Shown piece by piece: positions 2,464-26,444 of a stretch of DNA of 64,000 nt (its first letter is position 1; each line of letters starts with the position of its first letter). The DNA lies in contig CM114271.1 of the NCBI GenBank assembly GCA_050084515.1, positions 12,152,001 to 12,216,000 on the forward strand. Reading direction: 5' to 3'. The position numbers and the translations under genes are program-made. The notes below the pieces were generated by a model. That model was given only the letters and a program-made list of their open reading frames with translations, searched no databases and was not told the DNA's origin. Source of the stretch: Blasia pusilla. Lineage: Eukaryota.

Positions 2464-2538
2464 GAGGAGTGGTAAGGGGAGAGGAAGAGAGGAGAGAGGA
2501 GAGAGGAAACTACCTTCAACCCAAAGAGATACTTTTTT

Positions 2539-4905: not shown

Positions 4906-5910
4906 TGTAATGTACAAGAGTTTCAATTTTATAGTCGTTTATTGAGTTCGATCCCCAAGTGGATCATTGTTTGATGAAAAGAGAGTTCGAAATTACAATT
5001 CTGTTGTAATAGTTGTATTTAAATATGTATGATTTATATTCAATGTTTTATCAATATATTCAGATCTTTCTTAGTACCAAGGTTTCTTTTCTCAATTCTC
5101 TCTAGTGGAGTTGACAGCATGCTCAGGTAGATTTCCTCTCGATATCAAGAAACCTCTCAGAGACCTCAACATGAAAGCTGGCTTCTGCTACTTTTGGAAC
5201 TCAATCCGTCTCGGCAGGTACTCTCTGTCAAACAGATTTCCTACAACTCTATGTTGATTATTCCATTGATGAGATAGGTTCGCCTCATTCACTCTTCACT
5301 CTGCAGACCCAAAAAGAATACTCAGACATAAGCATCGCACATCACAATAAATGAATGATTGCTTTACTACTCCATCAAGAATGAGAAAGCTTCAAAAGTG
5401 TATACAAGCTCGAGAGGGTACTACTCCCTTGCCCGGACCATTCCTACAGCATAAGGACTTCGTAAGAGAATGATGATGATAGCTACTTCTATGCTTCTTA
5501 AATACTCTCTGAAGTAGGAGTGATCCAAAGATTCGAAGCGTTCTTGATGAAGTTGGTGTCTCTTCAACATTTGTAACTACCTAGATCTATGGTGCTCTTT
5601 TCTTTTCCTACTATCCCTATGAATCCGCAGAACAAAATTGTCTTAACTACCTATCTGATACAAAGAGTTGCATCTTTTCCTATTCTAACTGTTCTAACTA
5701 TGTGTCGCTTGAAATCATTGTCAATCTTAGCTTCGCTGCTAATTCTGGACCCCTTTTGCTTCGCTTGAGGACAAAGCTCTTTCTCCTAATCTGAAGACAA
5801 AGCGCTCCATTCTTTGTTCTTGTTCCAGGTGCTTCGTTCTTCGTGCTTCGTTCAAGAGCGAAGTACTTCTTTCTCTTCTTCACCATGCTTTGTCATGCTT
5901 TGTCATGCTT
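4906..5910 (-). mobile_element. Truncated LTR of family A (inverted), inserted in the MULE transposase
   Basis: Reverse complement of LTR 5911-7130, starting from its ...TACATTACA end; about 270 bp of the LTR 5' part is missing. Confidence 0.9.
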
Positions 5911-7130
5911 TGTGATACCCACAATTTTGTACTCCTGAAGAATATATCTTTTTATTCAAGGAAGACTCTTATATATTATGATTTTGATTAAGATTATTTA
6001 TTATTATGAAGAAGAATGAGTGAATCATGAAGCTCTCGGGACAAGGCAGAGAGATGGAAGATCAAGGATTTGCCTTAGAGGAGAGGAAAACGCAATAACG
6101 AAGTCTCCAGACTCAGAACGAAGCTTAACGAAGCTCAACAAAGATGTACGAAGCTCTGTCTTTGAAGTACTTCGCTACATAACGAAGCATCACGAAAGAA
6201 AAGAAGAAAGACGTACTTTGCTCTTGTACGAAGCATGAAGCACCGGAAATAAGAACGAAGCATGGAGTACTTCGTCCTCATGAAGTCCAGCGAAGCGAAG
6301 CTAAGCTAAGAAGGACTGTGATTTCAAGCGACACATGTAAGAACAGTTAAACTAGGAAAGGGCGCGACCCTTTGTATTTAATTGGTAGTTAGAACAATTT
6401 TGTACCGCGGATTCACACGGATCGTAGGAAAAGCTAAGGGAACCATAAATCTAGGTAGTTAGAAATAGTGAAGAGCCACTAGCTTCATCAAGAACGTTTC
6501 GAATCTTGGGATCCCTTCCACTCCAGGGAATATTTAAGAAGCAAGGCAGAAGCCATAATCATCATTCTCTTACGAAGTCCTTATGTTGTAGGAATGGTCC
6601 GAGCAAGAGAGTAGTACCCTCTCGAGCTTGTATACACTTTGAAGCTTTCTCGTTCTTGATGGAGTAGTAAAGCAATCATTCATTCATTCTGATGTGCGAT
6701 GCTTATGTATGAGTATTCTTTTTGGGTCTGCAAAATGAGGAATGAATCAGGCGAACCTTTCTCATCAATGAAATAATCAACATGAGTTGTAGGAAATCTG
6801 TTTGACAAAGAGTAACCTGCCGAGACGGATTGAGTTCCGAAAGTAGGAGAAGTCAGCTTTTGTGTTGAGGTCTCTGTGAGGTTTCCTGATGTCGAGAGGA
6901 AAATCTACCTGAACATGCTGTCAATTCCACTAGAGAGAATCGAGAAAAGATCCTTTGGTACTAAGAAAGATCAGAAGATATTGATAAGACATTGAATATA
7001 ACTCATACACAGTTAAATACAATTATTACAACAAAATTGTAATTCCGAACTCTCTTTTCATCAAACAATGATCCTCTTGGGGATCGAACTTATTAAAACG
7101 ACTGTAAACTAGAAACACTTGTACATTACA
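5911..7130 (+). repeat. 5' LTR, family A
   Basis: TGTGATACCC...GTACATTACA; ends confirmed by the TSD-flanked solo LTR at 61820-63026. Confidence 0.95.
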
Positions 7131-7147
7131 TATACAAAGAAACTTTT

Positions 7148-7165
7148 TGGCGCCGCTGCTGGGGA
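7148..7165 (+). promoter_or_regulatory. Primer-binding site (tRNA-Asp/Athila-type)
   Basis: TGGCGCCGCTGCTGGGGA resembles the Athila PBS TGGCGCCGTTGCCGGGGA. Confidence 0.75.
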
Positions 7166-7560
7166 TCATATTCTTTGCTGAAAAGGGAGAGAGATACATG
7201 GGGAATCCGGGAGCGAGGAAAGAAGCCTCGTCTCATGGAAAACCCAACCAGCTTGTTCTTACTGAAGACCATCTGATATCTCTAGCTATTCCCCTCAGAC
7301 AATGGACGAAAGAAGATAACAACAGATTTGCTGCATTGGTGCTAGAAAAGATAGAACAATTAAGAAGCCTTGTCAATAAACCAGTCGCCAAACGGTGCTC
7401 CGCCCATGAACGTCAGTTGTACTTGGTGATGACCCGGTACTTCTGTTTATGGGAGGAAAACCTGGCAGGAAGATTAAGAGCACCTGACACACTTCTGTAG
7501 GCTTAGGAAGTAGAAACCTTTAAATTCCCTCCATGGATCCCTCCCTTTTTGTGATCGTGG

Positions 7561-9240
7561 GTGCGGAAGCAAGTTCCCGGATCCCAGAAGGGGCTCATGG
7601 AAGGCTCCCGGCCCTCTTCGCGAGATCAGCGAGCCGACCGACGGAGTAAGCAACAAGAAGATCACCCGGCTTGGAGACCTCCTGGGCTGTCTCCCGGTCT
7701 TCGTCTTTGCACGAAGCCCAAGAGCAAGAAGAGAGACATGAATAAACTCTCCACTACGTCCCCTGCCAGTTTGCAGTCGGACGAAGAGTCAACTTGGGAC
7801 CCCTTTGGAGAGTCAGGGGACGCGGGGTCAACCCAATCAACTAGAGCGGAGCCGCTACCTCCTCTCTCCCGAGCCTCAAGCCCGGGACCCAGCAGCAGAC
7901 CATTCCCCATGGCCAATACTAGGAAGACATTTGCTAAGGTACCCCACCTTTGCTGGGGGACGGCGAGATGATGTGGACAACTTTGTGCTGGAATTTACCC
8001 ATGTAGCCAAGGCAAATGGGGAAGGCTCAGAGGAGGACTTGTTGCGAGTCTTTCCTGGCCTACTGAAGAAGCGAGCAAGCCAGTGGTATGAGGGTCTCAG
8101 AGCAGACGTCACGGAAACATGGAAAAGGGTATTGGAGTCCTTCCTACATGAGTTCCGCGACCTGGAGTTCGAGGATAGACTTCTTACGAAGCTTCGCGAC
8201 CTGAAACGAAAAAAGAAGGAAACTCTCTGGGGGTACACACAAAGGTTTCACAGCCTGGTGAATAAATTGGAACACACCACTACCTCGCAACTAGTAGATT
8301 GGTTCCTGTGAGGACTGTCCAAGGAAATGGACCGGTACTGCCGGCGAGGCCAACGAGATTCCGTCGAAGCAGTCATAGCCTCTGTAGAGGCTTACGAAGC
8401 CTCAGAGAAGTCCCGTAAAACACGAAGACGGCGTCACCAACACCGAGGTTCGTCGCAAACTAGTGCTTCGTCGGAAGACGAAGCGTCCTCCATAGACACG
8501 GAATCCTCTATGGGGGATACTTCGGAGTCCTCAGACTCGAAAAAGATGTAAAATCTAAACGGAAAGGAAAAAGCACGCGCCACCACTCTCCCAAGCACCG
8601 AAGGAAAACCCGACCCACAAAGCACCTTCCCCAGCGGTCGGAAAGTCCAGTAAGGGGGACAGTAAAGAAGGCCGGTAAGTCGGCCATGGAAGAGTTAAGT
8701 AAGCAAATGGCAGAATTAAAGGTACATCTGGCGGCCCAGAAGGACCCCAGAAGACGGCCAGGTCTGATGAGGCCCAACATCTGGTGCAGTACTTGCGGAT
8801 CCCAAGGGCATACTGCCCAGGAATGCCACATGCAGAGGGATGTACGTTGGATCCAGGAAGATCCCACTATAGAAGAAGGGTGGTATGAACCCGAACAGTG
8901 GAAAGGGTGCTATGCCATCCAAGCTGTGCCACCACCAAATTCCGGACGAAGTTGGATCACCCGATATGTGCCTCCGGAATACGGGGAATAGAGACCCCTG
9001 AGACAGATTATGGGCGCGGCAGCCTTCACGCCACCCATAAAAAGGAATTGTTGTTATAATTGGGGTGCGACTGACCATTGGGCCAATAATTGCCCAAACC
9101 CAAAGCGGCCAGTAGGACTCAATCCCTTGTGCGGAAATTGCAAGAAAGGCGGGCACACTATAGTGGAATTCCCGGAGCCCAAGGTTCCGCGGTTGTTGGT
9201 AAAATATGTCAACACCCCAACAGGCCAACTAGCCAACTAG
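7561..9240 (+). pseudogene. gag: Gag with zinc knuckles
   Basis: Retrotrans-gag-like PTFAG..DVDNFVLEF..ASQWYEGL..TWKRVLESFLHEF; knuckles CSTCGSQGHTAQEC, CYNWGATDHWANNC, CGNCKKGGH; stops and frameshifts. Confidence 0.85.
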
Positions 9241-12200
9241 AGTCCAAGAATGACGTAAATGTGCAACTCGTCCGAGTGGAAGAGTTAGGGTCCCCCACGC
9301 GAAAGCGAGTCACTATCAGAGAGGAAGACTCGAACAGAGCGGACGCCGGAGAATCATCAAACTGGCCCAAAGAGTTCCAAGAAACCGTTCTGGCTGTCAC
9401 CACGAGGTCCAAGAGTCAGACCGCGGGGAACCCCAAGGCAAGGAAAGGTGCTTCGTCTTCGCGCAAAGCTCAGGACCCCAAGGCGAAAGGTGTTGACGCC
9501 TTCCGCGCCAGGAAGGCCATCCTAAAAGGCGATGTGGACCCGGCCTTTGATCGAAGTCACCCTAAGTACTTCCATCAGGATATCGAGGACCAGGTTCGGG
9601 CTCAAGTGCGTCAGGACCAGGGACCAGCAGGGAGGAAGACCCCAGAGCTGATGAGAACCCGAATGACTCCGGCAGTGCAAGCCATCGCGACGTCACCGCT
9701 GGTCTTAGAAGCCTACGACCTACTCAGGGACTTGGCGTCAACCCCGGCCAATATAACCTTGTTGCAATTATTAATGGAGAACCCGGTGTACGGCAAAATT
9801 TTGCAGCAGTGGAAGATAAGCGGTAAAAAACCCAAGAAGTCTGCAAAGCATCTACCAGTAGTGGATCTGTTCCGTATTGAAGTGGAAGACTTGGGAGCAC
9901 TAGAGGTAGAGGTGGAGATTGAGGGGCACACCATTAAGAAGGTGCCCATTGACTCAGGAAGCGGAATTAACATTATGACAAAACAGACAACTCGGGCACT
10001 AGGATATACGAAGTACGAGCCCACCGAGAAGTATCTACGGTTTGCGGATCTGTCCCGGAAGCGACCCCTCGGACAGCTCACTCAGATCCCGACCATGCTC
10101 GGGGGGGTGCTATTTCTGTTGGACTACTTAGTCTTGCAGCCCCTGACAACCACGGGCTATCCCTTGCTCATTGGACGACCCTGGCTGTATGGTGCGCGAG
10201 TGACGACGGATTGGAGGAGGCGACGTTTCACGTTCCAGGCTCCGGACCAGGTCTCCAAGCGGCTCATCAAGTTTTCGTGGAAATCACGACCACCCCAAGG
10301 AGAAACGCCACCGACCGACGAGGGCTATACATCAGATCAAGAGCAAACTACAGCAACTGAGTCCTCGTCCAATGTGTATTATTTAGAATGTTACAAAATA
10401 GACGAAGAGTCGATACCTAGCAAACCGATGTCGACCCGAGAAGAAGAGAAGCAAGGTCATAGCACATTCCAGTTTACAGAGAGTATGGTTCAAGAAAAGG
10501 ACTACATCCAAGTCTTAGTTGCAGATCAGAAGTCTCTACGCCTCTCGGCGGATCTGTCTCCCACCGAACTCCTGAAGTATAAAAGATTATTATTTGAGTA
10601 TTTGGATGTGTTTGCATACTCCATGGATGAAATGAGAGGCATTCGAGCACGGTATGGTGAACATAGAATTGACCTAAAAGAAGGTGCGGTACCTGTACGA
10701 ATGAGGCAGTATCGCCTCAACTCGAAACACTCGTTGCTAGTCAAGGACGAGATTGACCAACGTCTCGGAGCAGGAATAATTTATCCGGTGTTAAATAGCA
10801 AGTGGGTGTCTCCCATTGTGATTGTACCCAAAAAATAGACGGGAAAAATTAGAGTGTGCCAGGATTACCGGAAATTGAATGCGGCCACTTTAAAGGACCA
10901 TCACCCCCTACCTTTCACTAACAGTATTTTGGATAAATTTGCCGGCCACGAGCGTTATACTTTTTTGGATGGATACTCGGGTTATAACCAAGTATCCATA
11001 CGAGAAAAAGATCGGCCCCTCACCACTTTCACCACGGACTGGGGAACTTTCGCGTATCGCGTGATGCCCTTTGGGTTGTGCAATGCCCCAACTACCTTCC
11101 AACGAATGATGATCTCCATCTTCCAAGAGTATCTGCGGAAGTTTGTTGAAATTTTCTTGGACGATTTTTGTATCTTCAATACAGAAGCCCAACACTTGGC
11201 GAAATTAGAATTAACCCTCGCTCGTTGTCGTGAAGTTCACTTGTCCCTCCATCCGGAAAAATCGTATATTGCTATGAAACAAGGGATCTTGTTGGGACAC
11301 AGAGTGTCGGCTCAAGGAATTGAAGTCGACAAGGCTAAGGTGGATATTATCGTTGCATTGGAACCACCCACCAATCTCCGAGAATTGAGAGGATTCTTGA
11401 GACACTTCGGATACCATCGACGGTTTATTAAAGATTATGCGGTAAAAGCAGGAGCTCTTACTGCATTACTTAAAAAATCTACCGAATGGGAGTGGACTCC
11501 ACCTTGCCAAGCGACATTTGACACTTTAAAGAGGGCATTGCAAATAGCTCCTATACTCCGGTCCCCTGATTGGACCAAACCCTTCCACGTGTATGTGGAC
11601 ACATCCTCGTTTGCCATTGGAGTGGTGCTCAGCCAACAAGATGACAATAAACATGACTTTCCAATTTACTACGCCGGACGGCAACTCTCTTCGGCGGAAC
11701 AAAAATATACAACCACCGAACAAGAAGCACTAGGCATGGTCTTCTCGTGTAAAAAGTTTCGACACTATTTATTAGGTTACGAATTTGTCTTCCACGTCGA
11801 CCATTTCGCGCTCAGACCATTAATGGTGAAGGCAGACTTGTCCGGTCGCATTGCGCGATGGATCCTTCTGCTCCAAGAATTCATATTCGATGTGGTTACC
11901 CGTGCCGGCAAGGTGCATACCAATGCCGATTTTCTTTCCAGGTTGAGGATGACGAACGCGGACCTCACACAATCCGTTGATGATACCTTTCCCGACGAAG
12001 ACCTGTTCTAGATTACGGCGGACCGGTTGTGCCAATTCTTTTATGAGGATATTTTGCGTTTTTTAATTACTCTGCGACTTCCTGGTCCTATGACAGCAGA
12101 GGAACACGCTATTTTCTTACATAAGATAGGACCATATGAGATATGTCAGGGGATCCTATTCAAATTAGGTGCGGATGAAGAGTATCGATGATGCTTGGAA

Positions 12201-13310
12201 GCAGAAGAAATCCCCCAAGTCATCAGAGCCATGCGTACGGCTGATTTTGGTGGACATTATGCGATAAAAAATACCGTCAAGAAAATCTTGGCCGCACGTT
12301 ATTGGTGGCCAACTATGTACAAAGATGTAGGTCACTTTATCCAGAGTTGTGATGCCTGTCAAAGAGCAGGTTGACCCACGGCAACCTCGCGGTGGCCTTT
12401 GGTACCTATCATGCCCCTAGCTCCTTTTGAAAAATGGGGTATTGACTTTGTAGGCCCTATCTCCCCCGCTACTCGCCAAACACCGCGGAAGTATATTCTC
12501 ATAGCCACCGACTATTGTACTAAGATGGTCAAGGCGGTGGCCACGCGAAAAGATGACAGCGAAGCAGTGGCCAAATTTTTATACGAGATGATTATCACTC
12601 GTTATGGCTGCCCATTGGAATTAGTCAGTGATCGAGGCACTCACTTCTTAAACAAGACTATTTAGACTCTCACTTCCCACTTTCTTATTAAACATCAGAA
12701 AACCACGCCCTACAACCCTAAAGCCAACGGGTTGACAGAAAAATCTAACGGCCTGATCTGCCGGATATTGAATCGATTGACTGTCACGTATTCCTATGAT
12801 TGGGACATGAAAATTTCCGCGGCATTGTGAGCATACCGAACAACTGAGAAGGTTACTACAAAGTATACCCCATTCTTCCTGACTTATGGCGTTCATCCCT
12901 TAACCCCTATTGAATGGGCTTTGCCCACTTATCGAGTATTGGAAGGAACGAGAATGGAGGCCGTCGGCGAAGTTTTCCAAGTAAGGAATGAGACCTTAGT
13001 TGCGTTGGAAGAAGCACGCATGTTAGCGTTACGCCAGACGGAACAGGCGCAAAAAGAACGCAAACAACGTTACGATTGACATCTCCGGCCATAATCTATA
13101 AGCGTTGGAGACTTGGTGTTGTTGTACGATAATCGGCGGCTCAAGTTCCCCGGAAAATTAAAATTAAATTGGATGGGGCCCTATCGGGTATTGGCCATCT
13201 ATGATAACGGATCACTCCATTTGGGGACCTTACAAGGAGAATCCCTGCCCACGCGGGTCAATGGAATGCATGTGCGTCGGTATTACGAGCCTCAACCTTA
13301 TGCGGACTGA
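9241..13310 (+). pseudogene. pol: Pol: protease, RT, RNase H, integrase
   Basis: IDSGSGINIM (protease), CQDYRKLN..FLDGYSGYNQ..MPFGLCNAP..FLDD (RT), YVDTSSFAIGVVLSQ (RNase H), WGIDFVGP..SDRGTHF (integrase), GKLKLNWMGPY (GPY/F). Confidence 0.95.
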
Positions 13311-13628
13311 AACAGGAGGAAGGGGGTAAGCGAATGCCTCTAGCTTTGTAGAAGTGCAAAGCAGCAAAGTGCGAAGTGCAAAGCACGAAGCGCAAAGCAG
13401 GAGTGCAGGGAGCTTTGCAAAGTAGCGAGGCGCGAGAGTTCTTGAGCTTGGCAAAGCAGCGAAGTGCCAAACTAACGGTTGCAGTTCTAGCGCCAACAAC
13501 AACAATCGAAAAATGGGGGGACTATATAAGCGTCCTTATGGAACCAGACGGGTCTTTTCATGGACAGGGTAAACACAAAATTGCGGAGCAGACCAAAGCG
13601 CGGCGTCCACCGAGCGCGATGAACAAGC

Positions 13629-15482
13629 ATGCCTCGCGAAGACTCCATGCCTATTCTGCGAAGTGCGGCAATGCCTATGGTCAAGCTGTCCCCCGAGCTG
13701 GTCGAAGCACTGGAAGAGCGCTCTTTGGCGACTTTCTTCCAATCAAATTGGACACTGACATCAGGAGAGCTCCTCGGGGAACTTCGCTCCTCAACGGCAG
13801 CCGCTGAATCTCGAAGGAAGGGTCTTCGATATCGAGCTCAGCCCCAACATTGGAGGCCGGATGATTGGCAAGCCACTTATATGCTCCCGGTTGCTCCAGA
13901 GTATGAGTATGATACTGAGGCCTTGGTGAAACACGAAGATTTGTTGGCACTCGGCTGTGTCACGTTTGATCGTCTGGGCAGGAATGGTTATAAGGCTACG
14001 TCGTTGTCTCCACCATTATTTGGACAGTTTTGTAAGCATTTGATGACGTTATTTTATCCCGCTCGATCTTACTACCTAACCAATAAGCTCGTCAAGATGA
14101 ACTATCTCCTTTGGAATCAGCACTTGGATCCCGAAGCACCGAGAGTAGACTTCACTTCCTTTGTCAACGGAAACGTACGAGCAATGCTGGAGGCGCTTCC
14201 TCCAAGCACGAAGTCATACTTATCGCCTTTTTTAATCCATCTATATCTTCATAAGCAGGAATTGACGGCGGACAAAGCGCTCGAGTGGTCGCAGGTCACT
14301 CCCGTTCGCTTACCAAGAAAGAACGGAGCGGTCACTAGTGGGAGCCGCGAAGGCACACCGCCAAGCGAAGCAACCCTAAAGCAACATCCGCATACTTTGG
14401 CTTTGGGCAAAGTCGAGGGAATCACCGAACTGCCAAGACCAAAGCACGGCACGGTCAATTTCAAAACACCCTCGGAACAAGAACCTGCTACTCAGGAGGA
14501 CTCCGATGAGACGCCTCGTGCTAGCGATCATCGTCGTGCACTTCGTCTCATGTCCCAAACAGCCAACGATATGGTGTGGTTCTTGAATTTAGCTGTTCCG
14601 GTCATGAATCAACTGCAACACGTTCTCCACCTGGACGACACGGCAATGGTGGACGAGTATTTACAAGGCCTACATGACCTCAATTGTCAGGCTCAGGCTT
14701 CGTCCAACCACGAAGTACAGCGTAAAGTGGCGGAACCAACTCTTCAGTTGCGGGATCAAGAACTCGAAGACACCAAAACCACGCTTTGCAAAGTTCAAAG
14801 CGACTTAGTCCAGAATCAATACGAAGCACGAAATGCGCGCCAATGGGAGAGCTTGGCGATTAACCTGGAGTGTGGGGCTGATCAATTTGCTTCGCAGATG
14901 AAGGAAGCTTCTCACCTCATTCAACAATATCGACACCAGATACATCGCGTGCACAACGAATTCAAGAAATTGGCCACCCAACATGCTGAATCTTCAAAAG
15001 TGCTTCAAGAACAGTAAGAAACAAACAAAGACTTACTAGCGTAGTGGTCAGAGGTTACAGGGAGGATCGCGGTATTGGAGGCGGAGCAGAAACTACTTAA
15101 CAAAGTGCAATTAGACCCGGAAGATGTCAAAGAGTTAATCGAGGAAGCTGCCAAGAGTTTCGAAGAACAAATGAATGAAGAAATTGACTATATCAACAAA
15201 CATTGGAAGCGCCAATTCGACAATCATACAAAGTCTCTTCCAGAAGTTGTACCCACTCTTTCAATTACTCTTGAAGACTTACCATTATTTACTCCATCTG
15301 ATGTCTTAGTCCAGAACGAAGTACTAGGGAGTAAATTAGTTGTTAACAAGTCGCGAGAAAGAATGCGCAATCATACCCCTAACATTATCAACAAACCTTC
15401 TACTATTCACGGTCGTTTTGCACCTACACCTAAATTTGATAGTTTAGATGATACTTTTATGGAGATAGGAGAAACATCATGA
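13629..15482 (+). pseudogene. Extra ORF between integrase and PPT (env-like position), coiled-coil C-terminus
   Basis: 462-aa ORF plus an in-frame 135-aa continuation after stops; Q/E/L-rich heptad-like tail. Confidence 0.7.
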
Positions 15483-15508
15483 AGTGTTCGCCGGGGCGGC
15501 TCACATTT

Positions 15509-15521
15509 GGGGGAGGGGATA
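15509..15521 (+). promoter_or_regulatory. Polypurine tract
   Basis: GGGGGAGGGGATA directly before the 3' LTR. Confidence 0.85.
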
Positions 15522-16741
15522 TGTGATACCCACAATTTTGTACTCTTGAAGAATATATCTTTTTATTCAACGAAGACTCTTATATATTATGATTTTGATT
15601 AAGATTATTTATTATTATGAAGAAGAATAAGTGAATCATGAAGCTCCTGGGACAAGGCAGAGAGATGGAAGATCAAGGATTTGCCTTAGAGGAGAGGAAA
15701 ACGCAATAACAAAGTCTCCAGACTCAAAACGAAGCTTAACGAAGCTCAACAAAGATGTACGAAGCTCTGTCTTTGAAGTACTTCGCTACATAACGAAGCA
15801 TCACGAAAGAAAAGAAGAAAGACGTACTTCGCTCTTGTATGAAGCACGAAGCACCGGAAATAAGAACGAAGCATGGAGTACTTCGTCCTCATGAAGTCCA
15901 GCGAAGCGAAGCTAAGCTAAGAAGGACTGTGATTTCAAGCGACACATGTAAGAACAGTTAAACTAGGAAAGGGCGCGACCCTTTGTATTTAATTGGTAGT
16001 TAGAACAATTTTGTACCGCGGATTCACACGGATCGTAGGAAAAGCTAAGGGAACCATAAATCTAGGTAGTTAGAAATAGTGAAGAGCCACTAGCTTCATC
16101 AAGAACGTTTCGAATCTTGGGATCCCTTCCACTCCAGCGAATATTTAAGAAGCAAGGCAGAAGCAATAATCATCATTCTCTTACGAAGTCCTTATGTTGT
16201 AGGAATGGTCCGAGCAAGAGAGTAGTACCCTCTCGAGCTTGTATACACTTTGAAGCTTTCTCGTTCTTGATGGAGTAGTAAAGCAATCATTCATTCATTC
16301 TGATGTGCGATGCTTATGTATGAGTATTCTTTTTGGGTCTGCAAAATGAGGAGTGAATCAGGCGAACCTTTCTCATCAATGAAATAATCAACATGAGTTG
16401 TAGGAAATCTGTTTGACAAAGAGTAACCTGCCGAGACGGATTGAGTTCCGAAAGTAGGAGAAGTCAGCTTTTGTGTTGAGGTCTCTGTGAGGTTTCCTGA
16501 TGTCGAGAGGAAAATCTACCTGAACATGCTGTCAATTCCACTAGAGAGAATCGAGAAAAGATCCTTTGGTACTAAGAAAGATCAGAAGATATTGATAAGA
16601 CATTGAATATAACTCATACACAGTTAAATACAATTATTACAACAAAATTGTAATTCCGAACTCTCTTTTCATCAAACAATGATCCTCTTGGGGATCGAAC
16701 TTATTAAAACGACTGTAAACTAGAAACACTTGTACATTACA
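15522..16741 (+). repeat. 3' LTR, family A
   Basis: Near-identical to 5911-7130. Confidence 0.95.
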
Positions 16742-16789: not shown

Positions 16790-17095
16790 GCGCAACCCAT
16801 TGGAGGCCAAGGCTTCCAACGGGTTGCGCGGATACCTTCCCTTGTTACCCCAAGACGAGGGAAGCATGCAACCCGTCAGTCTTTGACGGGTTGCGTGGGT
16901 ACCTCGCCTTGTTACCTGACGACAAGGGATGCGTGTAGCCCATCGGTCTCGAACAGGTTGCCAGGGTACCTCGCCTTGCATCCCCAAGACGAGGGAAGCG
17001 TGCAACCCGTCGGAGACCGATGGGTTGCCCGGGTTCCCATGTGCAAAGTTCCATAATGGCTGACACGTCGCCGTCGGTACGACCCAACGGTCAGC
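16790..17095. repeat. Tandem ~70-bp units each holding the MULE palindrome, upstream of the cargo gene
   Basis: E.g. TGCAACCCGTCAGTCTTTGACGGGTTGCG (16868) and TGCAACCCGTCGGAGACCGATGGGTTGCC (17001); TATAAAAGG follows at 17112. Confidence 0.8.
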
Positions 17096-17392: not shown

Positions 17393-20300
17393 ATGACGAG
17401 AAAGAAAACACAAGCAACCAAGGTAGGGAGCATCACTCCCAAGTCCATCAGGACTCCTGCGTCACCATCTCTAGGTCCTCGTTTGGCAAATGAGATAAGG
17501 CAACAAGAAATAGAGGAGCGAGAAAGGGAAGCAGATATGCACAGGCATGAGGTTTTAGCAAAACGTGTTCTGGAGGAGCTCGCCAAGCAAAATGCCGAAG
17601 TTCGGAAGGCCTTGAAGAAAAGAGTCGCAGACGGGAAATGCGAGAAGAAGCCTCTTGACGCCTTCGTCAGGAGAGCAGAATTTGTGAAAGCTCGAAGGGA
17701 AAAAGCAATCGCCATTGAAGAAAGCCCTGCCCGTCCAACAAAGAGTGTTGAGATGCAAGAAATGTCTCCGATGAGGTCTGGGAACACCATGAATCTAAAA
17801 TTGGCTGAGGAAACAGCCGAAGTTCAAGTGACGGACGATGAGATCATGAGGACAGTAAATGTGGAGATGGTGGACATCTCTGAAGAAGTAGGAGAAGAGT
17901 CTTCGTTGTCTTTGAGCCCGGTGGAAGAGATCGACCTTTATCGGATTGATGAGTTCCTCTTGGACTTGCCAGCTGCTGTCCTAGAGTAGCTGGTAGGCCT
18001 GGACACCAACCCAATCTTTGAGCGGGTAAGAAAAATTCGGGTTATATGAAGGCTCAATTATGCAATTCATTGGAAAATTAGTGTATTTTATTGACTTGGT
18101 CCCCATTGTGGCAGGTTGTTAAGCAGATGGAGGGCTAGAAGGCCCCAAGAATTCCACTCTGTCGATTGCGGAAAATAGAGTACGTCCGCGAAATTCAGTC
18201 GGAGGAGGACATTACAGAGCTCAAACAGTCGGCAGCGACTGCATCCTACGTCGACAGTTTCCCTCCATTCTATGTTCAACCTTACGATGAACATGGAACC
18301 AAAGCTCTGATGATGGAAGAGGACTTGGAGGCGTTGGATACTTTCTAGAAGATGAGAGATCAGGAGTTCAGAAGAGCAATTGAAGGAACCCAATTTAGCT
18401 GGATGCGGAACCTTTACTTCTTCATCTGGGATGGGAACCACAGATACATGGCGTGGACGCACTTTGCAGAGGAGCGCCCAAATTCATTGGAGGCACATTT
18501 TTGCGTGAAGGCGATCGTGCTCCATCCATTTCCTCATCACATAACAACGGTGGAAATGGCCATGCATTCGATGAATACGTAAGTTTCCTCTTCCTTAAGT
18601 TTGATTGCTTCAACCCGTCGGAGTCCGACGGGTTGCATAATTGGAAAGCTTAAAGATGGGCAAGAATGATTTGAGTCTCTTGCCACCATCTTGTTTGTGG
18701 TCAATGTCATAGTCAAGCAATCATTGTTGGGCGACGATCTAGTAAATGAGATGGTGGCGAAGGGAGCACAAATAAAAAAGAAGCAATGGGCAAATACCTT
18801 CATTTTTCAAGATGCAGCCGTCACAATCCTATGTTGGTCCAAGATCCAGGCCGCCAAGAAGAGTGCTTCGTTGGAACTAGAGCAAAGGGAGAACGTGTCT
18901 GCGTCGGAGCGTGCAAAGTTTATTCAGGCTGCCGTATCTGCAGCTACAGAGTATACTACAAGCAAGATGTAGCGTTACATTGCGATTCTTAGCCCCGAAC
19001 TTAGCGCGGAGTTTTACAAGGAGCTCAAGACGATAATCAAGCGCCAGCGGAAGAAAGACGAAGATCCACAGTGTCGGATCGGAGGGAAAGTGTCTCTAGA
19101 CCGCGTGCACAGGTTTGCGCTGTCTCAGATATCCGAGTTTAGGCGAATCTGACTAATGAAAGTCAGTCTTGAGGGAACTAAGGCCCAAAAGCGGGCGGCA
19201 TACCACCCTCCGGGTGTTTTAGATCCAGTGATCTCCCATTGGCTACGGGAATGGTCATTCTGGAACGCATTGCGCCTTCTCGGGAAGTCCATTCTCTTGG
19301 GTCTACCAGCGGAGCTGAAGAATATTGAGCTAGTTCCAAAGGAAGGAAACCTAGAAGTTGAAGAAGATTTTGGACTATGGCTTGATGATATCAGAGATAA
19401 GCCCACGAAAAACCCAAGATTCAAGATGATGTTCAAGAATCACATCCTCCCTCAGGAAAACTTGGATGAGGAAATAAACGCCAAAAAATGGGATTTGCAA
19501 AGAAGAAGCGGGATCTTCAGGCCCAAGCGGCCGAGTCATCTTGACAAAGAGCTGCCCAGTGGATGGTGTACAAGTACCTCATCAATTGTATGAATGCAGG
19601 TACCTGGCGAAGATTACCGGCAACATGCAAATTGTGGGCTTCTCTGCCTGATGGAGAGGGATTCTCCATGTACGACATGGAGATGAGACAGGGCATGTCT
19701 GAGTGGGAGGTTATCAATTTTCCAATCTGGTTGGACTTCAACAACCCAGAGGACATTACAAAAAAAAATCTACGCGTGGTGTGTGATGCAGTGGTCGAAG
19801 GTAGGGACGACATTCCGAACTTCGTAAAGCCTGAAATTTTTTTTGAAGGAGATGCGGAGGAGCAAGCCCTTGAGATAGTGGAGTTGGTGGCAAAGGTTGT
19901 CACCCCCAAAGACAAATCCACAGTGGGTTTGAAAGCCAAGGCGAGGGGATCGAGGAATTCCGAGGCCGAGTCTTCTAGAAAAGAGGCTGAGTCCTCAAGG
20001 CGAGAGGCGGAATCGTCCAGGCGAGCAGGGCGAGAGGTCCGGACTAGGTCCTTGTCCAAGAAAACTCCTGTGGAGTCTGAGGTAATAGAGACTCCCACAA
20101 GCCAACACCAGACTCGGGAGAAGCAAAAGCGGGAGGCGTCTAGTTCGTCCGAGGGAGGCGCTAAGGATGTGGAATACACTCCATCCTTCTTGGGCAAGCA
20201 TAGGGAAACTACCACCAAGACAAATGTCCTTATTCAGTTGACTCATCTTGTCGATCAGCTGCAGAGTTTCAGTTCTCAGGAGTCGACACTTGCCATCGAC

Positions 20301-22160
20301 AAATTGATCGTGCTGAGACAAAAACTCCTTCGAAACGGGCCCGCCCCCTGGATGGTGCATGGGGTTGTTGAGGAGGTGGCGATGGACCTCCTCATTGTGG
20401 ATTTTCCTTCTGGGTTTTGCTTGTGGGACAACAATCTGTCTGACACTATCACAGACTAGAATGTCCCGCTTTTGTATGACCAGATCGCGCTGTTGTTTTC
20501 TTTTGCCGATGCGTATGTGAGTGACAGGGGTTGTTTCTTGGTCCTCACTGGAGGGAGCAAAGACAAGCTCTTCAACCTTCAGTGCGCGAAGAGGTTGTTG
20601 AAGTGGAGGACGGCGCAATCATGGGTCATTAAAAACGAGTATCCACTCAGATCAGCGACGAGTCAAGTTTGGGTAAGTCCTCTTTTTCAACGAATTGAGT
20701 TTGACCAGAAATTCAACCCGTTGGATCCCAACAAATTGTGTCTGCGGTGTTGCAATCCATCTGAAAGCGACGGGTTGCAAATTCACCAACAAGTCTCCAT
20801 TGAATGCAACCGGTCGGAACTCAACGGGTTGCAATTTGCACTGCTTTTCCACATGTTTATGGACTGATGCAACCCCTTTGAAAGCAACGGGTTGCTCTAA
20901 TATTAGGAACTTCTCAACTCTGAAAAATTGTATTCTGTTGTAAGCCAACCAGCGGACTCCGACAAGTGGAGGTTCTGTCCAGCAAGATGAGCAACTTGTC
21001 GGCTTCCGACGGGCTGCTCGTGGCCAGTAAATCCACTTAGAGTTGTAAAACAACCCGTCGGACTCCGATAGGTTGTTGTTCTGTCAGGCCTATAGGGCAA
21101 GTTCAGACGAGTTGGTAATCACTTTGGACTAGTATGACAGGTTGAAAAGCAACCCGTCGAACTCCGACAAGTTGCTCCTCTGCCTAGCCAAATGAGCAAC
21201 CCGTCGGATCCCGACGGGTTGCACATTGTGTCACTATATTGAGAGAAGACTAGCGGTCTACTAGCTTTTTCTTTTTGCTGACATTGTTTTCCACCTGCTT
21301 GTTTACAGATGAACCACTCATTTTTCTACAGCTTTGTAAGGCTCAAGCACAACTTCCAGGTGTTCCAAATCCCGGATCCTTGGATCCATGCTCCGATGGG
21401 TAGAACTTAGATAGTCTCTACAATTTCCCCCCCGGGGAATTTACATGTAGGACGGGAACCCCTTACTTGGAGGAAGGGAGAAGTCACCTGCCTTGATGCA
21501 AACGCTCATCAAGCTCTACTCGAGGCTAGTTGACTTGATCTTTGACTTGGTGGGCCTATCAGGGGCGAGTATCAGAGGCGCCTAGCATAGTGGTAGGATC
21601 ATTCTCTGCCTTGAGGGAAGGCCATAACTTTTTGACCTTTGCAAAGAGGCAAAGGCGGATTACGAGAGGCTAGTGGGAATATACAACTTCCTCCAAAGCC
21701 AATAGCTCCAATTCTAGAACCACCATTGATAATGACACCATCGTCACTTCCTACTATTCCAAAAATCGAGAGGGCAAAGCCGACAGTCATTTTGGAAGAG
21801 CTATCGGACGATGACAAGTGAGTTCAAAGATTTATTGGACTCAGCTTTACTGAAGCATTTTGGAGTAGGGATTTAGTGCTTTCCAAGGACGGAGCACATA
21901 TTGATACTAGATGGGTGTCACCTTGCAGAGCATACAAGATTTCTTGTGGAGGAAGGCGTTGGGACTTAAATCATGTTACACGGGACCGCAATGGTGTACC
22001 TAGGGGGGGGCCAAGGCTCTCAAATTCCCCAACATTTATGATCCCCGTCTACAATCGGCCAGAGGAGCCACTTGTATCCCAAGACATTCCTTTTGTATAA
22101 GAACCTAGGAGAGTTAGAAGTAAATTTGTAGATGACGAGGCTGAAGAAATCAAAGACTAG
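17393..22160 (+). pseudogene. Spliced gene: ParB/Srx-like domain fused to a beta-class N4/N6 DNA methyltransferase-like domain
   Basis: Introns at 18026-18114, ~18579-18648 and 20673-21308. ParB-N: IPLCRLRKIEYVREIQSEEDITELKQS..PFYV..YFFIWDGNHRYMAW..VKAIVL..MAMHSMN. MTase: MDLLIVDFPSG..LFSFADAYVSDRGCFLVL..SWVIKN..|MNHSFFYSFVR..GREKSPALMQTLIKLYSRLVDLIFDLVGLSGASIRGA*HSGRIILCLEGRP*LFDLCKEAK (21472-21660, absent from the ORF track). Confidence 0.7.
20710..21225. repeat. Palindrome array in cargo-gene intron
   Basis: About 10 copies, e.g. GCAACCCGTCGGATCCCGACGGGTTGC at 21197. Confidence 0.9.
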
Positions 22161-22304
22161 ATCAAATGTACATTTCCGAGCTTTGCTCAGATGTAATAAA
22201 GGACAAGAAGTTTTTGAACCATGATGGTTTTTGTAAACTTTTGCTGAATTGTTTTTCGTTCTTGTCGATTGTGTAGGTCTATATACTTGAGGTTGTTTAT
22301 ATTG

Positions 22305-22720
22305 TAACTAGTCGGATTTCGACGAGTTGCAACTTGTCACAATATTTTAAACCCCTTTCAGGCAACCTGTCAGATTCTAATAGGTTGGGTCTTGAGTGAT
22401 CCCACTCTTTTCTTGTTAGTCCAACTTTTTAGGCATTCTGGCAGGCTTCTTCACTTTTGCCTCATTCTCCCATTATCGTCACACCATTCTTCTCTAACAC
22501 CGTATTTCAAAGACGTGTTGGATTCCTACTACTTGTCGAATTCTCATGTCGGATTCTCATGGGCTGCAGGGCGGAATGGAATCACTTGTCAAGATCCTTC
22601 TTTTGTTGTGGTGTGCTTGCTTGCAAGGGATGCAACCCATCGGATTCTGACGGGTTGCAAGAGTTGCAACATGTCGGATTTTGACAAGTTGAAAGGGGTG
22701 CAACCTGTCGGATTCCGACA
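22305..22720. repeat. Palindrome array downstream of cargo gene
   Basis: E.g. TGCAACCCATCGGATTCTGACGGGTTGCA at 22631. Confidence 0.85.
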
Positions 22721-23534
22721 TTTAGGGTCTAAATGAAGGGATATGGGTGCATTGGTTCCTCTTTACTCCTGACATCTAACAACCTTTTGGTTCAATTTTT
22801 GTCTCAGTCCGATCACATTTTCTTCTTGATGCATACCGATAATTCTCAGTGGTTGAGAGAATAGTGAAACCAAGTTGTCAAATGCACAGCAGTCCATGGT
22901 ATACTTTATGCACCCATTCATGAGCCAACATCATACAATGATGTCATGAAAGTCTCCGAATACCATCAGTGATGAGTGATTTTTTCTGTTGTGGAAGACC
23001 CCCTCATGGATGAGTATTGATTAGATGGGATATTTAATGCCTTTTGCAAGAAGAGTCAACAATCCATAATGTCAACCACATCTTCATAGAAGTTAAACCT
23101 TGAAGGGCACATGAGTCTATTGGGACCATAGTTAGAGTCTTTATTTGAACCTTTCATTTGAGATGAAATTGCTACTTCTGGTCAAATTATCTGTCGATGG
23201 TCCTTCAACAATAATATCCCTCTGCCCGACTTACAATAGAGCTGGCTTAGACAGGCAATGTGAAGAAAATTGAGCTCACATGGAGAGTGATGGAAGGATT
23301 TTTGTAGTGGTCTTATGATGTCTACTTGTTTTTCCAAGCTTGGAAAAGGAAGGTTACTTTAGGCCCGAATGTGGTCCACTTGCTCCTCTCTTCTAAAGAT
23401 TTCAAGAATTTGAAAGCAAACAAAAATTTCAAAAATGTCAAAAAGTTTTGAAGAGAGGAGGTGGATTCTGCCCTTTTTTTAATAGAGACTCTCCTCTCCT
23501 CTCTTCCTCTCTCCTGACTGAATACCAGCCCCTA

Positions 23535-26444
23535 GTACTCAATCTGGTTGTAGAAGAACTTGCACTTTCCTGGATGTAGCTTCAGCCCATGTAATTGCAA
23601 TAGTCAAAACACCTCATATAGATGTTGCTCATGCTCCTCAACCGTGGCGCTAAAGACTACGATGTCATCAATTTAACACCTAGCAAAATTGAGACCTGCG
23701 AAGATCCTATCCATGATCCTTCGAAACTCAGTCGGGGCGTTCTTTAACCCAAATGGTAAGAACCGCCACTAGTGCAAAAAATCCTTCTCGTGAGGATCGA
23801 TGCCCCAAAATGATGTCTTTTGCATGTCCTCCAATCTGATACGTAATTGGTGGTATGCGACTCAAAGATCTAACGAATTGAAGACCTTTACATGCCCAAT
23901 AGCATCAAAGATCTCCTCAAGGGTAGGCATGGCATACCTACCAGATTTTGTCTGCCAATTGATAGGTCAGTAATCTCCACACATCTGCCTATCCGTCTAG
24001 TTGCCATGCACAGCCTTCTTGGCGGGCATGATAGTGGCAGATATATACTCCATGCGACATCTCCATTAGTCTTGCTCCAACCAAATCATGGCTCTTACTC
24101 TGAATCAGAGCCCTCTCCATGTTACTGTACGTGTAGGGTCTTTGGAAGATCGACATGTCACTCGACAACTCAATGCAGATCCCTGGACCCTTCAACGTAC
24201 CCAAATCATGCATGCTAAATGCAAAACAACTCCTACAACTCCTAAGGAACTGGTGAATCCGGCGCCGCTCTCCTCCTGTCAACTTAGGGCCCATATCTAG
24301 CTCCCAAGTCTCCATCGTGACTACGGTAGGACTCTCTCATGCGGGTGTCGATGGTTGCTATGATGCAACCCCATCTTGAATAGTAGAACTCGACTGCTCC
24401 CCTACATCCAACTGCAAACTCTCATCTCTACGTGCAGTACCCAAAACCACGCTCGATGTTGTGGCTATCATCTCCCCGTACCTGTAAGACATCCCAAGAG
24501 GTCCAAGGGTGTCTCCCGATCACTCCTAGTATATCGATCTCCTCGGGTCTTGCCCTTAGCCACAACCGCAACCGTCTTGATAAGCATGGGGCTCACCAAT
24601 GCAACATCTATAATCTGTCGCAAACCTCAAATGACGTTGCTTAACTACTCCTAAGCTGAAAATCTATATCAAGCAGTTTAGGTCCATCGCCTGACCCAAG
24701 ATATGACATCGTGATGCCTTTGATAGTGACAGTACTGCAATCACTCTTATGGGGAATCCCATTGCTAGCTCTCGCTTATCGGCGTTGGGCTCCATCAACC
24801 GCTGTACTTCGTCATCCCAAACCAAGCCACGCCCAACCTCCCATAGGAAGCAAGAAAACTCACCAATATCGGAAAGGATGCTCGTGGCATGCCAATCCTG
24901 TTGATCACAATCAACGGAGGTCGATCATGGTGTCGTACTGCTTGTGATTGGCGACCTGGATATAGAATAGAATCTACCAACAAATGGGAGAGGTGCTCCA
25001 CTCTCACATACGCCCTACGCAAAACCTCATGTGGCACCAAGTTGGTCCACCAAAGACGCAGGCATGAACCTACATTTGCCGCATCCAACAACACTGCCGG
25101 GCCGATCCATGCGCGCACCTAATGTGCATCCGTCACCACACAGGATCTCGAATCTCCTAAAATAAACACATTCTCCACAATCTATGATGGAGAACAAGAC
25201 TGATGCTCTTGTTAGTGTTGCAAGATCTCCATCATCTCCCAAAATAACCTGGACTGAGAGTCAACTAACCCGCTATCTCATCCAACACTCGACCAACAAG
25301 AAATGACCAAATCTATGGTCCCTACCCGCTCCAAGTCTTGCGCCTCCTACAATGAAATGTCCCTCAGTAGGGATCTCTGGTAACCCTAGATGGCGGACGC
25401 AGACAACAAGTCGGGAAATTGGAGACGTAACTACGTCACATGGTGAAGCGAAGAGCGCCTCATAACATCATCAATCTCAATGTACAAGTATTGCTTCATG
25501 CACACTCCTTCCTACAAAAGAGCAGCTAAGCCAGTGCTGATCCCTCCAAAGAGATCCAACACGCGAATACCCTCCTCTGAGATGCGCCACATAATCGAGG
25601 TGGTTTCCAAAGGGGTTATAGTAGCACTCCTTGCTACCTCAAGTTCCTCTTACCCATCACGCTCTGGTGCAAACACTTCACTTTAGGCTGTCTACACGTG
25701 CTCATTAGATAAACGTCGGAGCTCCTTACTCGAGCTCCTCACTCGAGCCCCACAGCGGTTTCTCTCCTCCACGGAATGATGCGGCTATCATAACACTCCT
25801 CACCCTAGACGTGTTAGGCGCCGGGGTATTCTATGCAAAGACATGCCCCTCAATCAAGTCAAAAGGCCACGTGATGATCGTGCTAAATGGTGTTAGAGTT
25901 GCCATCTCTCTTGGCCGTCGCTCAATCACTCCACACGTGAATGAAACGGGTAATGATGTAAGTCGTCCATCATCGGACTGATATCTTGGTCTGTAGGACG
26001 CTGATTCCTCCCAATAATCCAAGGAAAACCCCATCAGGTACAACATTGCTCCACCAACCAAGACGTCGTAGGACTGTGCATTGTTCACGATCGCCTAGGC
26101 TTACACCACGTACTCATTGGTAGGATGTCTTGGGCAAATCCTCACCACGACCTCTTGTCGGGTGATTAATTGTGTGGTATTCGCTTCACCCAACGATGTC
26201 TGTATCATGAATGGACAACGCTCCACGTCGGCCCTCGTTAGGACCAAACCCGTGAATGTCGCCTTACCCAACATCAAGGGTTATGCTCTTGAATCTAACA
26301 AGACACGCTGCGGAAAAAAAAATCTACCTCCTCGACTCACCAATTGGAAGATCTCCCATTGGTAATCCACCAACAAAACACCTAGAGCAACCATGGCACG
26401 CTCTATCACGGATCTAGCGGACATCTCCGCCATCCTAGCAGCCG
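23535..26444 (-). pseudogene. Middle segment of minus-strand DNMT-Gypsy copy: protease, DNMT, RT
   Basis: Reverse-complement homology to ~30630-33575; SYDVLVGGAMLY (protease end) and METWELDMGPKLTGGERRRIHQFLRS (RT start). Confidence 0.9.
24660..25575 (-). pseudogene. DNMT3-like C5 cytosine methyltransferase domain (copy 2)
   Basis: GIRVLDLFGGISTGLAAL (motif I), YLYIEID (II), IVENV (VI), LDAANVGSCLRLWWTNL (VIII); the PCQ motif is deleted in this copy. Confidence 0.85.

Follow-up and report, generated by a model that had tools for sequence, protein, structure and literature searches.

The window analysed here is a 64,000-nucleotide stretch of the genome of Blasia pusilla (assembly GCA_050084515.1, contig CM114271.1, positions 12,152,001 to 12,216,000 of the forward strand), to which all positions below refer; it is plant-like DNA rich in transposons. 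Its left part holds a DNA transposon with terminal inverted repeats (TIRs), inserted in a long-terminal-repeat (LTR) retrotransposon and itself opened by younger insertions, and within this transposon lies a gene that encodes a ParB/Srx-fold domain followed by a domain resembling beta-class amino-methyltransferases (Table 1). The gene, its relatives in other land plants and its probable role for the transposon are the subject of this report.

The gene and the transposon that carries it

The translation of exon 2 contains PRIPLCRLRKIEYVRE, FFIWDGNHRYMAW and AMHSMN in this order, and its DGNHR motif occupies 18430-18444. Exon 3 changes frame near 19545-19593 and ends with LLIVDFPSGF, VSDRGCFLVLTGG and WVIKNEYPL, with VDFPSG at 20397-20414. 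In exon 4, EKSPALMQTLIKLYS, DLIFDLVGLSGAS and GRIILCLE follow one another (the same stretch can also be read as HSFFYSFVRLKHNF, then EKSPALMQTLIKLYSRLVDLIFDLVGLSGAS up to GRIILCLE), from EKSPALMQ, which begins at 21478, to the end of GRIILCLE at 21615. An earlier prediction made from the letters of this DNA (the original prediction) had placed these motifs correctly to within one base, giving 21614 for the last of them. The tail encoded by exon 4 ends in FVDDEAEEIKD, of which FVDDEA is common to the Riccia and moss-like copies described below. Because the three-frame translation has at least nine in-frame stops and at least four frame changes, the window copy is a pseudogene; together with the GT..AG introns 1 and 3, this agrees with the intron-containing pseudogene originally proposed. 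Many predicted proteins of the family stop one or two residues past AMHxxN, where the window has a GTAAGT donor that can be read as a TAA stop, and this suggests an intron whose position, at the AMHxxN endpoint, is conserved and which cuts automatic gene models short.

Table 1. Positions of the transposon, its gene and its repeats in the window (TSD, target-site duplication; ORF, open reading frame).
Feature	Position	Strand	Description	Basis
TIR DNA transposon	2464-23534		21,071 bp; about 9 kb of own sequence plus nested retrotransposons; sits in the pol region of an LTR retrotransposon	
Left TSD	2455-2463		GTACTCAAT, 9 bp	
Right TSD	23535-23543		GTACTCAAT, 9 bp	
Left TIR	2464-2510	+	Imperfect; core GAGAGGAAGAGAGGAGAG	Local alignment of left end with reverse complement of right end
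Right TIR	23489-23534	-		Same end-to-end alignment
Minus-strand ORFs ("gene X")	2540-3700	-	Divergent from the ParB gene after removal of the nested retrotransposons	
Palindromic cluster	3750-4550		11 half-sites; left part of the intergenic array	
Nested insertions	4938-16726		Split the 1.1-kb intergenic array; LTR-like fragment 4938-5819, Ty3/gypsy-type LTR retrotransposon 5911-16726	
Palindromic cluster	16790-17030		6 half-sites in three 67-bp tandem units, right upstream of the gene	
Whole gene	17393-22160	+	Four exons; ATG at 17393, TAG at 22158-22160	Reading frame traced through three-frame translation
Exon 1	17393-18025	+	Charged, low-complexity N-terminus; one in-frame stop; GT donor at 18026	
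Intron 1	18026-18114	+	GT..AG; exons 1 and 2 stay in frame	
Exon 2	18115-18578	+	ParB/Srx-fold domain, IPLCRL ... WDGNHRYMAW ... AMHSMN; two in-frame stops	
Palindrome in intron 2	18610-18636			
Exon 3 (start approximate)	18713-20660	+	Conserved middle region, basic/acidic linker, N-half of methyltransferase-like domain	Collinear BLASTP to Riccia P0004 and P0097
Intron 3	20661-21309	+	GT..AG; holds 10 half-sites of the palindromic motif	
Palindromic cluster in intron 3	20713-21222		10 half-sites	
Exon 4	21310-22160	+	C-half of methyltransferase-like domain and C-terminal tail; several stops and frame changes	BLASTP to P0097
Palindromic cluster	22318-22712		6 half-sites, downstream of the gene	

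The boundaries of the transposon were given by the retrotransposon that it splits. The host copy lies in two parts, 1-2463 and 23530-26444, and its paralogue at 30.6-35.2 kb in the window is contiguous. As a TSD, GTACTCAAT is found at just two places in the window, and the uninterrupted paralogue has a single copy of it (reverse complement of 33500-33640). At the right edge, 808 DNA reads bearing the same species label continue at 23530 into the sequence left of 2455, as do 36-44 RNA reads in each of three runs. The TSD-bounded element of the original prediction is thereby confirmed, with GTACTCAAT at both ends. Its TIRs are imperfect with an 18-nt identical core, and its ends are not of the CACTA type. 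Inverted repeats adjoining the gene had been considered as candidate TIRs and were rejected, the match between them being that of the palindrome motif only. The nested Ty3/gypsy-type retrotransposon has an LTR pair of 98% identity and ORFs for gag, reverse transcriptase, RNase H and integrase; in its 3′ part, a 464-amino-acid open frame on the forward strand (13623-15014) has no Pfam family and may be an extra retrotransposon ORF.

A 13-mer, GCAACCCGTCGGA, occurs 37 times in the window with up to two mismatches, against 0.78 expected, a count that was attained in none of 100 shuffles. They mostly stand as inverted pairs forming 26-27-bp palindromes, and 34 of the 37 lie within the transposon's own DNA, clustered beside or inside the gene; the three outliers are single two-mismatch sites at 9263 and 10061 (nested retrotransposon) and at 53980. 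One such palindrome, CAACCCGTCGGAnTCCGACGGGTTG, lies at 18611-18636 and also at 17002-17028, 21196-21222 and 22632-22658. The moss-like copies have inverted-repeat arrays of their own at the same positions, some upstream of the ParB exon and others within an intron, with a different sequence (for example CCTCCAACTTTTG/CAAAAGTTGGAG in L011:8726-9273 and L011:12579-12720). By analogy, the arrays recall parS sites and the inverted-repeat arrays of red-algal ParB-type accessory genes.

The gene family and its two domains

Frame 1 of the gene, read through with X at stops, gave 91 matches at E ≤ 1e-3 (best 4e-29) among 1.84 billion representative proteins. Eighteen of the 20 matches looked up are hypothetical proteins of the liverwort Riccia sorocarpa, and the other two are a protein of the fern Adiantum nelumboides and a metagenome cluster. 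The full-length Riccia members P0004 (1191 amino acids) and P0097 (1207 amino acids) are collinear with the window gene from the ParB-like exon through the tail. In BLASTP, the frame-0 piece aligns to P0004 (E 3e-7) with LLIVDFPSG over LFLDMPSG, and the last-exon piece aligns to P0097 residues 1106-1161 (E 1e-8), a stretch of P0097 that matches positions 168-218 of the PF01555 profile. As judged from these alignments, the pieces belong to a real gene family and are no chance motifs; a word-indexed search of the frame-0 piece against longer proteins gave no match. Riccia holds dozens of members, among them seven consecutive locus-tag pairs that split the ParB half from the methyltransferase half, and UniRef names some members 'Trimethylguanosine synthase', a sign that the automatic annotation is unstable.

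A metagenome scan made with a five-sequence alignment yielded 52 moss-like loci in AT-rich, intron-rich DNA, with the same exon order as the window gene: ParB exons, a KVDLVI[VT][DN]VPSN exon about 2.8 kb further on, then IIVDFNCGMG and a tail with FIDDEA. With tblastn, P0097 matched the ParB part only of these loci, and their methyltransferase exons were located by motif pattern and ORF clustering; at E ≤ 0.01, a hidden Markov model built from a Riccia-only methyltransferase alignment missed both the window and the moss exons. The moss-like copies are 75-82% identical across more than 13 kb, and no ORFs common to these loci and the window flanks were found. In Blasia itself, a DNA run sampled at about 1% gave a depth of 20-130 per mate class, alike over the gene and its flanks, and 8,436 of 10,057 reads were only 90-95% alike. 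Because a single-copy locus could not give this depth at such sampling, the Blasia genome holds many old copies, whose number would by estimate run to hundreds.

Between moss-like copies, the Nei-Gojobori ratio of nonsynonymous to synonymous substitutions (dN/dS) was below 1 in all 28 exon comparisons, with values that are imprecise, being taken from short ungapped segments (16-90 codons) that favour conserved parts. The DGNHR exon ranged from 0.08 to 0.18 (7 of 7), the first ParB exon from 0.17 to 0.60, and the methyltransferase-like domain from 0.41 to 0.72 in its N-half and from 0.19 to 0.75 in its C-half. Because these ratios lie below 1, the protein is kept by selection acting on the element, the ParB core being its most constrained part. 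The family is thus multi-copy and element-borne, with land-plant members in Riccia, moss-like DNA, a fern and Blasia. The original prediction had set such a family against ordinary Pack-MULE capture (MULE, Mutator-like element), and the multiplicity in Riccia, the moss-like contigs and Blasia, together with purifying selection, speaks for the family.

An AlphaFold2 (AF2) model of the window's own exon 2, built from a 47-sequence alignment, reached a pLDDT (predicted local distance difference test) of 92.1 and a pTM (predicted template modelling score) of 0.85. A Foldseek search of the Protein Data Bank (PDB) placed Noc or ParB at every rank from 1 to 12 and sulfiredoxin and KorB after them, with a probability of 0.99-1.00, E from 5e-3 to 3e-2 and TM of 0.42-0.50; KorB, PadC, sulfiredoxin and ParB count as the closest structural relatives of the domain. 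Asp98, Gly99, Asn100, His101 and Arg102 are each at least 90% conserved among the 47 sequences and form a loop of the Gly-x-x-Arg type after the central strand; this DGNHR loop we take to be the nucleotide-binding (phosphate-binding) box of ParB/Srx. The modelled structure thus places the exon 2 domain in the ParB/Srx superfamily, as had been predicted from the DGNHR motif.

As to the C-terminal domain, 12 of 19 Riccia members gave a match to PF01555 (N6_N4_Mtase) at E ≤ 0.01, the best at 1.9e-7, and no other Pfam family recurs in the C-terminal halves. The matches always fall at about positions 165-218 of the 221 in the profile, its last 55 or so; precomputed assignments to this family exist for 4 of 26 relatives, and the window pieces gave no PF01555 match in the Pfam scan. 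A protein-atlas feature search, counted as a lead only, returned PF01555 in 26 of 30 named matches. When P0097 was compared with 50,697 phage records by tblastn, all 15 matches were weak and fell on residues 1109-1174, and 13 of them lay on annotated DNA methylases. With hhalign, the family profile aligned to four of these phage methyltransferases over 55 columns (95.4% probability, E 1.8e-8), a stretch consisting of motif X (an xKxxxLxxxLI helix), motif I and the next strand, G-R-x-x-I-x-x-E, with 40% identity to the phage enzymes. A profile of Riccia, window and moss sequences (A6) was also run against PDB by hmmsearch, in which DpnA (2e-5), M.RsrI (3.3e-4) and CcrM (0.022) were found and the five best matches were all beta-class N6/N4 methyltransferases. 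CcrM was aligned over both halves in permuted order (query 72-281 against chain 32-259), and DpnA in two ordered segments, with DxPS over DPPY and 'ilddrGcliil' over 'VNPNGCMVI'. In Riccia, DxPS sits about 150-190 residues ahead of motif X-I, which gives the permuted order, IV first and X and I near the C-terminus. These comparisons indicate that the C-half is homologous to beta-class amino-methyltransferases and that the whole domain has the permuted motif order, the match appearing firm only for the half that would bind S-adenosylmethionine (AdoMet). The domain and its motif order, IV and then X-I, had been recognized correctly in the original prediction.

The catalytic motif (D/N/S)-P-P-(Y/F/W/H) does not occur in the family, and D-hydrophobic-P-S/T stands in its place. 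As motif IV, the window has DFPSG, Riccia D[LM]P[ST]G (D[LM]SS in two degenerate copies), the moss-like copies [DN]VPSN and the fern DVPFG, which keeps the aromatic residue. The annotated phage adenine methyltransferases nearest to the family read DIPY, not DPPY (L053:931-1686, L054:943-1707, L055:940-1686 and L056:940-1686). Because these enzymes have DIPY, the loss of the first proline would be older than the plant family, and the loss of the aromatic residue would be the family's own. As the motif I loop, Riccia has DFAGGWGAT and moss DFNCGMG, in alignment with DPCAGSGST of the phage enzymes; in the window the loop is degraded to DLVGLSGAS. The original prediction had pointed to degenerate motifs in this copy. 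The catalytic loop is indeed altered, but DFPS is not a decay of the window copy, being conserved in Riccia and the moss-like DNA, whereas in VGLSG a conserved FxGGxG-like loop has degenerated locally. Because the defining catalytic motif IV is absent, the domain is best filed as methyltransferase-like and not as a proven enzyme.

Function and rival explanations

The segment 17393-22160 is probably a decayed accessory gene of the TIR transposon 2464-23534, whose product would be a ParB-docked, methyltransferase-like protein serving the element. The intact protein, as found in Riccia, has about 1200 amino acids and consists of a charged N-terminus, the ParB/Srx-like domain with its DGNHR loop, a conserved middle, a basic/acidic linker and the methyltransferase-like domain. 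Such a protein would serve the transposon and not the host, and would probably dock on the 26-27-bp palindrome arrays of its own element, which flank the gene and lie in its introns, as ParB docks on parS. A slight preference is given to the methyltransferase-like domain serving as a module that binds AdoMet or DNA and performs no classical amino-methyl transfer, which might, for example, shield the element or organize it for transposition; the alternative would be methylation with an unusual catalytic loop. The window copy itself is inactive: it is broken, and no transcription of its ParB and methyltransferase exons was detected.

Several results weigh against this reading. ParBc (PF02195) was matched neither by the window pieces at E ≤ 10 nor by ten Riccia homologues at E ≤ 0.01, the profile of the 47-sequence ParB-like domain found no ParB among the PDB sequences, and Pfam returned nothing relevant for any piece of the window's gene, with or without X at stops; a phmmer search of the frame-0 piece against PDB gave low-complexity matches only. 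Three of the PF01555 scores (23.7-26.2 bits) lie just under the Pfam cut-off of 26.7. Alignment of the N-half is weak, with a per-domain i-Evalue of about 90 plus the motif pattern, and hhalign covered the C-half alone, with no extension into the N-half under relaxed settings. The AF2 model of the methyltransferase region of Riccia P0098, from a shallow 19-sequence alignment, reached a pLDDT of only 36.4. The palindrome at 18611-18636 recurs in many places elsewhere in the genome, as seen from the heterogeneous flanks of 600 DNA reads there (consensus agreement 0.41). DNA depth at this palindrome is 2-4 times that of the neighbouring exons, and CAACCCGTCGGAnTCCGACGGGTTG may be an independent repeat of very small size, mobile or hairpin in kind, and no site dedicated to binding. 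The element yielded no transposase, and the link between the gene and a transposition machinery is positional only. To these points are added the imprecision of the dN/dS ratios and the transcript data. In three RNA-seq runs (6-12% read, at least 90% identity), depth was at most 1.7 over 17393-20660 and no splice joints were seen. RNA reads gather on the flanking retrotransposon and otherwise only at 21.5-22.3 kb, a stretch in which DNA depth too is 3-5 times higher; the low cover says little either way on whether intact copies elsewhere are expressed.

The final 470 bases of the gene (21780-22250), which hold the C-terminal tail, differ from the rest of it by a DNA depth 3-5 times higher and take up almost all of the RNA reads, at a depth of 11-36 and mostly 90-95% alike. 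DNA joints that go back by 650-654 (22536 to 21883/21887) point to another arrangement of the tail segment elsewhere in the genome.

A first rival concerns the methyltransferase-like domain. It is rather unlikely, though worth serious consideration, that the protein actively methylates DNA at N6-adenine or N4-cytosine by means of a non-canonical loop and so labels the copies of its own transposon under the guidance of the ParB-like part. The original prediction had put forward such self-marking, along with a horizontal origin of the module and a possible anti-silencing role, all of them conjectures. In paralogues only 55-60% identical, the AdoMet motifs are conserved (GDIVIDFAGGWGAT and CIVAE in Riccia, IIVDFNCGMG in moss), and the aspartate and second proline of motif IV are kept in Riccia, the window, the fern and two moss-like variants, other moss copies having asparagine for aspartate. 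The aromatic residue of the fern protein, the DIPY of the nearest phage enzymes, which indicates that the first proline is dispensable in that branch, and dN/dS below 1 in the methyltransferase exons favour activity as well, and self-modification is the published reading of the algal counterparts (PMC12477816). On the other hand, the base-stacking aromatic is serine or threonine in the window, the moss-like copies and the aligned Riccia proteins (except the two degenerate D-L-S-S copies), the methyltransferase exons (0.19-0.75) are less constrained than the ParB core (0.08-0.18), and the AF2 fold failed in confidence. The fuller claim of an old land-plant transposon family with an active ParB-guided amino-methyltransferase writing N6-methyladenine (6mA) or N4-methylcytosine (4mC) on its own palindrome arrays is more doubtful still and must be called improbable; if true, it would amount to a transposon-encoded epigenetic mark that counters, or hides from, host silencing by 5-methylcytosine and RNA-directed DNA methylation. 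At the opposite extreme, the resemblance to methyltransferases could be spurious, with an unrelated C-terminal domain sharing only a glycine-rich nucleotide-binding loop. This would fit a significant alignment of only about 55 columns, the weak N-half, the failed model and the 'Trimethylguanosine synthase' labels, but the aligned stretch, 40% identical to phage enzymes, takes in motif X, motif I and the G-R-x-x-I-x-x-E strand, beta-class enzymes make up the five best PDB matches, with CcrM aligned over both halves in permuted order, and PF01555 is the sole recurrent Pfam family (12 of 19 members), which makes coincidence very improbable.

The nature of the carrier is less settled than its existence. 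The element is real, and the evidence for calling it a MULE consists of the 9-bp TSD and the imperfect TIRs. The original prediction had placed a Mutator transposase divergent from the gene, presumably on the ORFs at 2540-3700; these match no Pfam family even at E ≤ 10, a word-indexed search with 2470-3696 gave no homologue among proteins of 224-716 amino acids, and their recognition by the protein atlas is low. No Mutator-type or other DNA-transposase domain (MULE, DBD_Tnp_Mut, SWIM) was found with Pfam in the six-frame read-through of 1-5000 or in the element's ORFs, and no Mutator-type transposase among the window's 150 longest stop-free ORFs (at least 85 amino acids) or in 138 ORFs of 16 moss-like loci, in scans that, being ORF-based, can miss decayed genes or genes with short exons. 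Neither the transposase nor the Mutator identity is thus upheld. It is possible, though somewhat doubtful, that the element belongs to another TIR superfamily or is non-autonomous, mobilized by a transposase unrelated to the ORFs at 2540-3700. TSDs measure 8-11 bp in MULEs, 8 bp in hAT, 3 bp in CACTA and PIF and 4 bp in Sola elements, and a 9-bp TSD with TIRs is a Mutator hallmark, which speaks against such an origin. In its favour, in addition to the missing transposase domains, two reports place ParB-type accessory genes on Sola1, Plavaka/KDZ, EnSpm and Mutator elements alike (PMC12477816; 10.1101/2025.02.11.637652). Against it, the ends are not CACTA-type, and short moss exons or decay could hide a transposase. 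A different account would make the locus a Pack-MULE-like capture of a fragment of a single-copy host ParB-methyltransferase gene, with no role for the element. Plant MULEs do reportedly capture host gene fragments, as Jiang et al. are said to have described in 2004. Yet the whole four-exon gene is present with its own flanks, the homologues are multi-copy in Riccia, the 52 moss-like loci and Blasia and are co-linear with a repeated element of more than 13 kb, the coding exons are under purifying selection between element copies, and no search returned a single-copy host version, so that capture deserves hardly any credence.

The window copy is dead and matters only as a family marker, and the intact copies of Riccia and moss make a tractable place to ask what such proteins do. 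Transposons with a DNA-binding and DNA-modifying protein of their own blur the line between host epigenetic control and the counter-measures of a parasite. The family also carries a warning for annotation: bryophyte and fern proteins labelled 'N6/N4 DNA methylase' or 'trimethylguanosine synthase' may be products of transposon genes.

Elsewhere in the window, two of its 150 longest stop-free ORFs stand out, one by a match to C-5 cytosine DNA methylase (PF00145, E 3.7e-8), the other by PHD fingers (E 2.9e-11); ten candidate ORFs between 38 and 64 kb are neither of these two. A PIF1-like helicase ORF on the minus strand (58112-58537), with Helitron_like_N and REP matches, points to a Helitron in the 53-62 kb region. 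At the window end, 63602-64000 on the forward strand matches DUF4218 (E 5e-15), a domain typical of CACTA/En-Spm-type transposases.

Comparison with known systems

Two proteins offer functional analogies only. VANC, encoded by the VANDAL Mutator-like elements, is a DNA-binding accessory factor that protects its own MULE, and it has no sequence or fold relationship to the plant protein. METTL14 (EPPL), a member of the MT-A70 family, which acts on RNA, has a methyltransferase fold without the catalytic loop and serves as a binding scaffold.

Prokaryote-type amino-methyltransferases are present in other eukaryotic genomes, where MpDN4MT1a/b of Marchantia are host-domesticated N4C methyltransferases with TSPPY/SPPY and 4mC activity (10.1101/2021.02.12.428880) and N4CMT of bdelloid rotifers is reported to be a host-domesticated bacterial N4C methyltransferase (PMC8885841). 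These differ from the plant family in being host genes, tandem or low-copy, with a canonical motif, demonstrated 4mC and no ParB, and in not being borne by transposons. Phage and prophage ParB-Tls loci, and ParB-linked methylases in chlorophytes, chytrids and haptophytes, are reported in an earlier survey (Iyer et al., 2015, PMC4738411). The phage modules, and small phage beta-class methyltransferases such as the 'DNA methylase' of Lactobacillus phage Lrm1, share the domain families of the plant gene. The small phage enzymes are 40% identical to it over motif X-I, and their motif IV likewise lacks the first proline. The phage enzymes found are stand-alone proteins of about 250 amino acids without ParB that keep the aromatic tyrosine of DIPY, whereas the plant gene has introns and its protein a 600-amino-acid middle region and a long tail.

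Closer parallels come from algal transposons. The red-algal Plavaka gene PAG3 combines a ParB-like N-terminal domain with a 2-oxoglutarate-dependent oxygenase and adjoins tandem inverted-repeat arrays, and other red-algal accessory genes encode an N6-methylase and SET (10.1101/2025.02.11.637652). PAG3 and the plant gene thus have in common a ParB-like domain fused to a nucleic-acid-modifying (in the plant gene, methyltransferase-like) domain, a place on a giant DNA transposon and inverted-repeat arrays beside the gene; the partner domain in the plant is methyltransferase-like and not an oxygenase, and the transposon superfamily differs.

The nearest counterpart is that of Ectocarpus, described in a 2025 survey of its transposons, where the 21.5-kb element Sola1-1_Ec32 encodes, opposite its transposase, a 1104-amino-acid protein with ParB-like and N4/N6 DNA-methyltransferase domains; 'similar proteins' are cited for transposons of green and of red algae, and self-modification is proposed (PMC12477816). 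With algal genes of this kind in print, the novelty implied by the original prediction was overstated. The Ectocarpus and Blasia elements are both large TIR transposons of about 21 kb with a gene for a ParB and amino-methyltransferase-type protein of about 1100-1200 amino acids, and both proteins are proposed to bind and modify their own element. They differ in that the hosts of the Blasia type are land plants, the TSD is 9 bp against 4 bp in Sola, the plant loop lacks the PP-aromatic and no transposase is seen on the window copy, the likeness being judged by the published description of the algal protein. In the full-text literature searched, which leaves most subscription journals outside its scope, no land-plant ParB-methyltransferase transposon gene was described. 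The plant gene is a land-plant member of an already published kind of transposon accessory gene: an architecture known from the transposons of brown, green and red algae persists in land plants under purifying selection, with a catalytic loop altered across the family.

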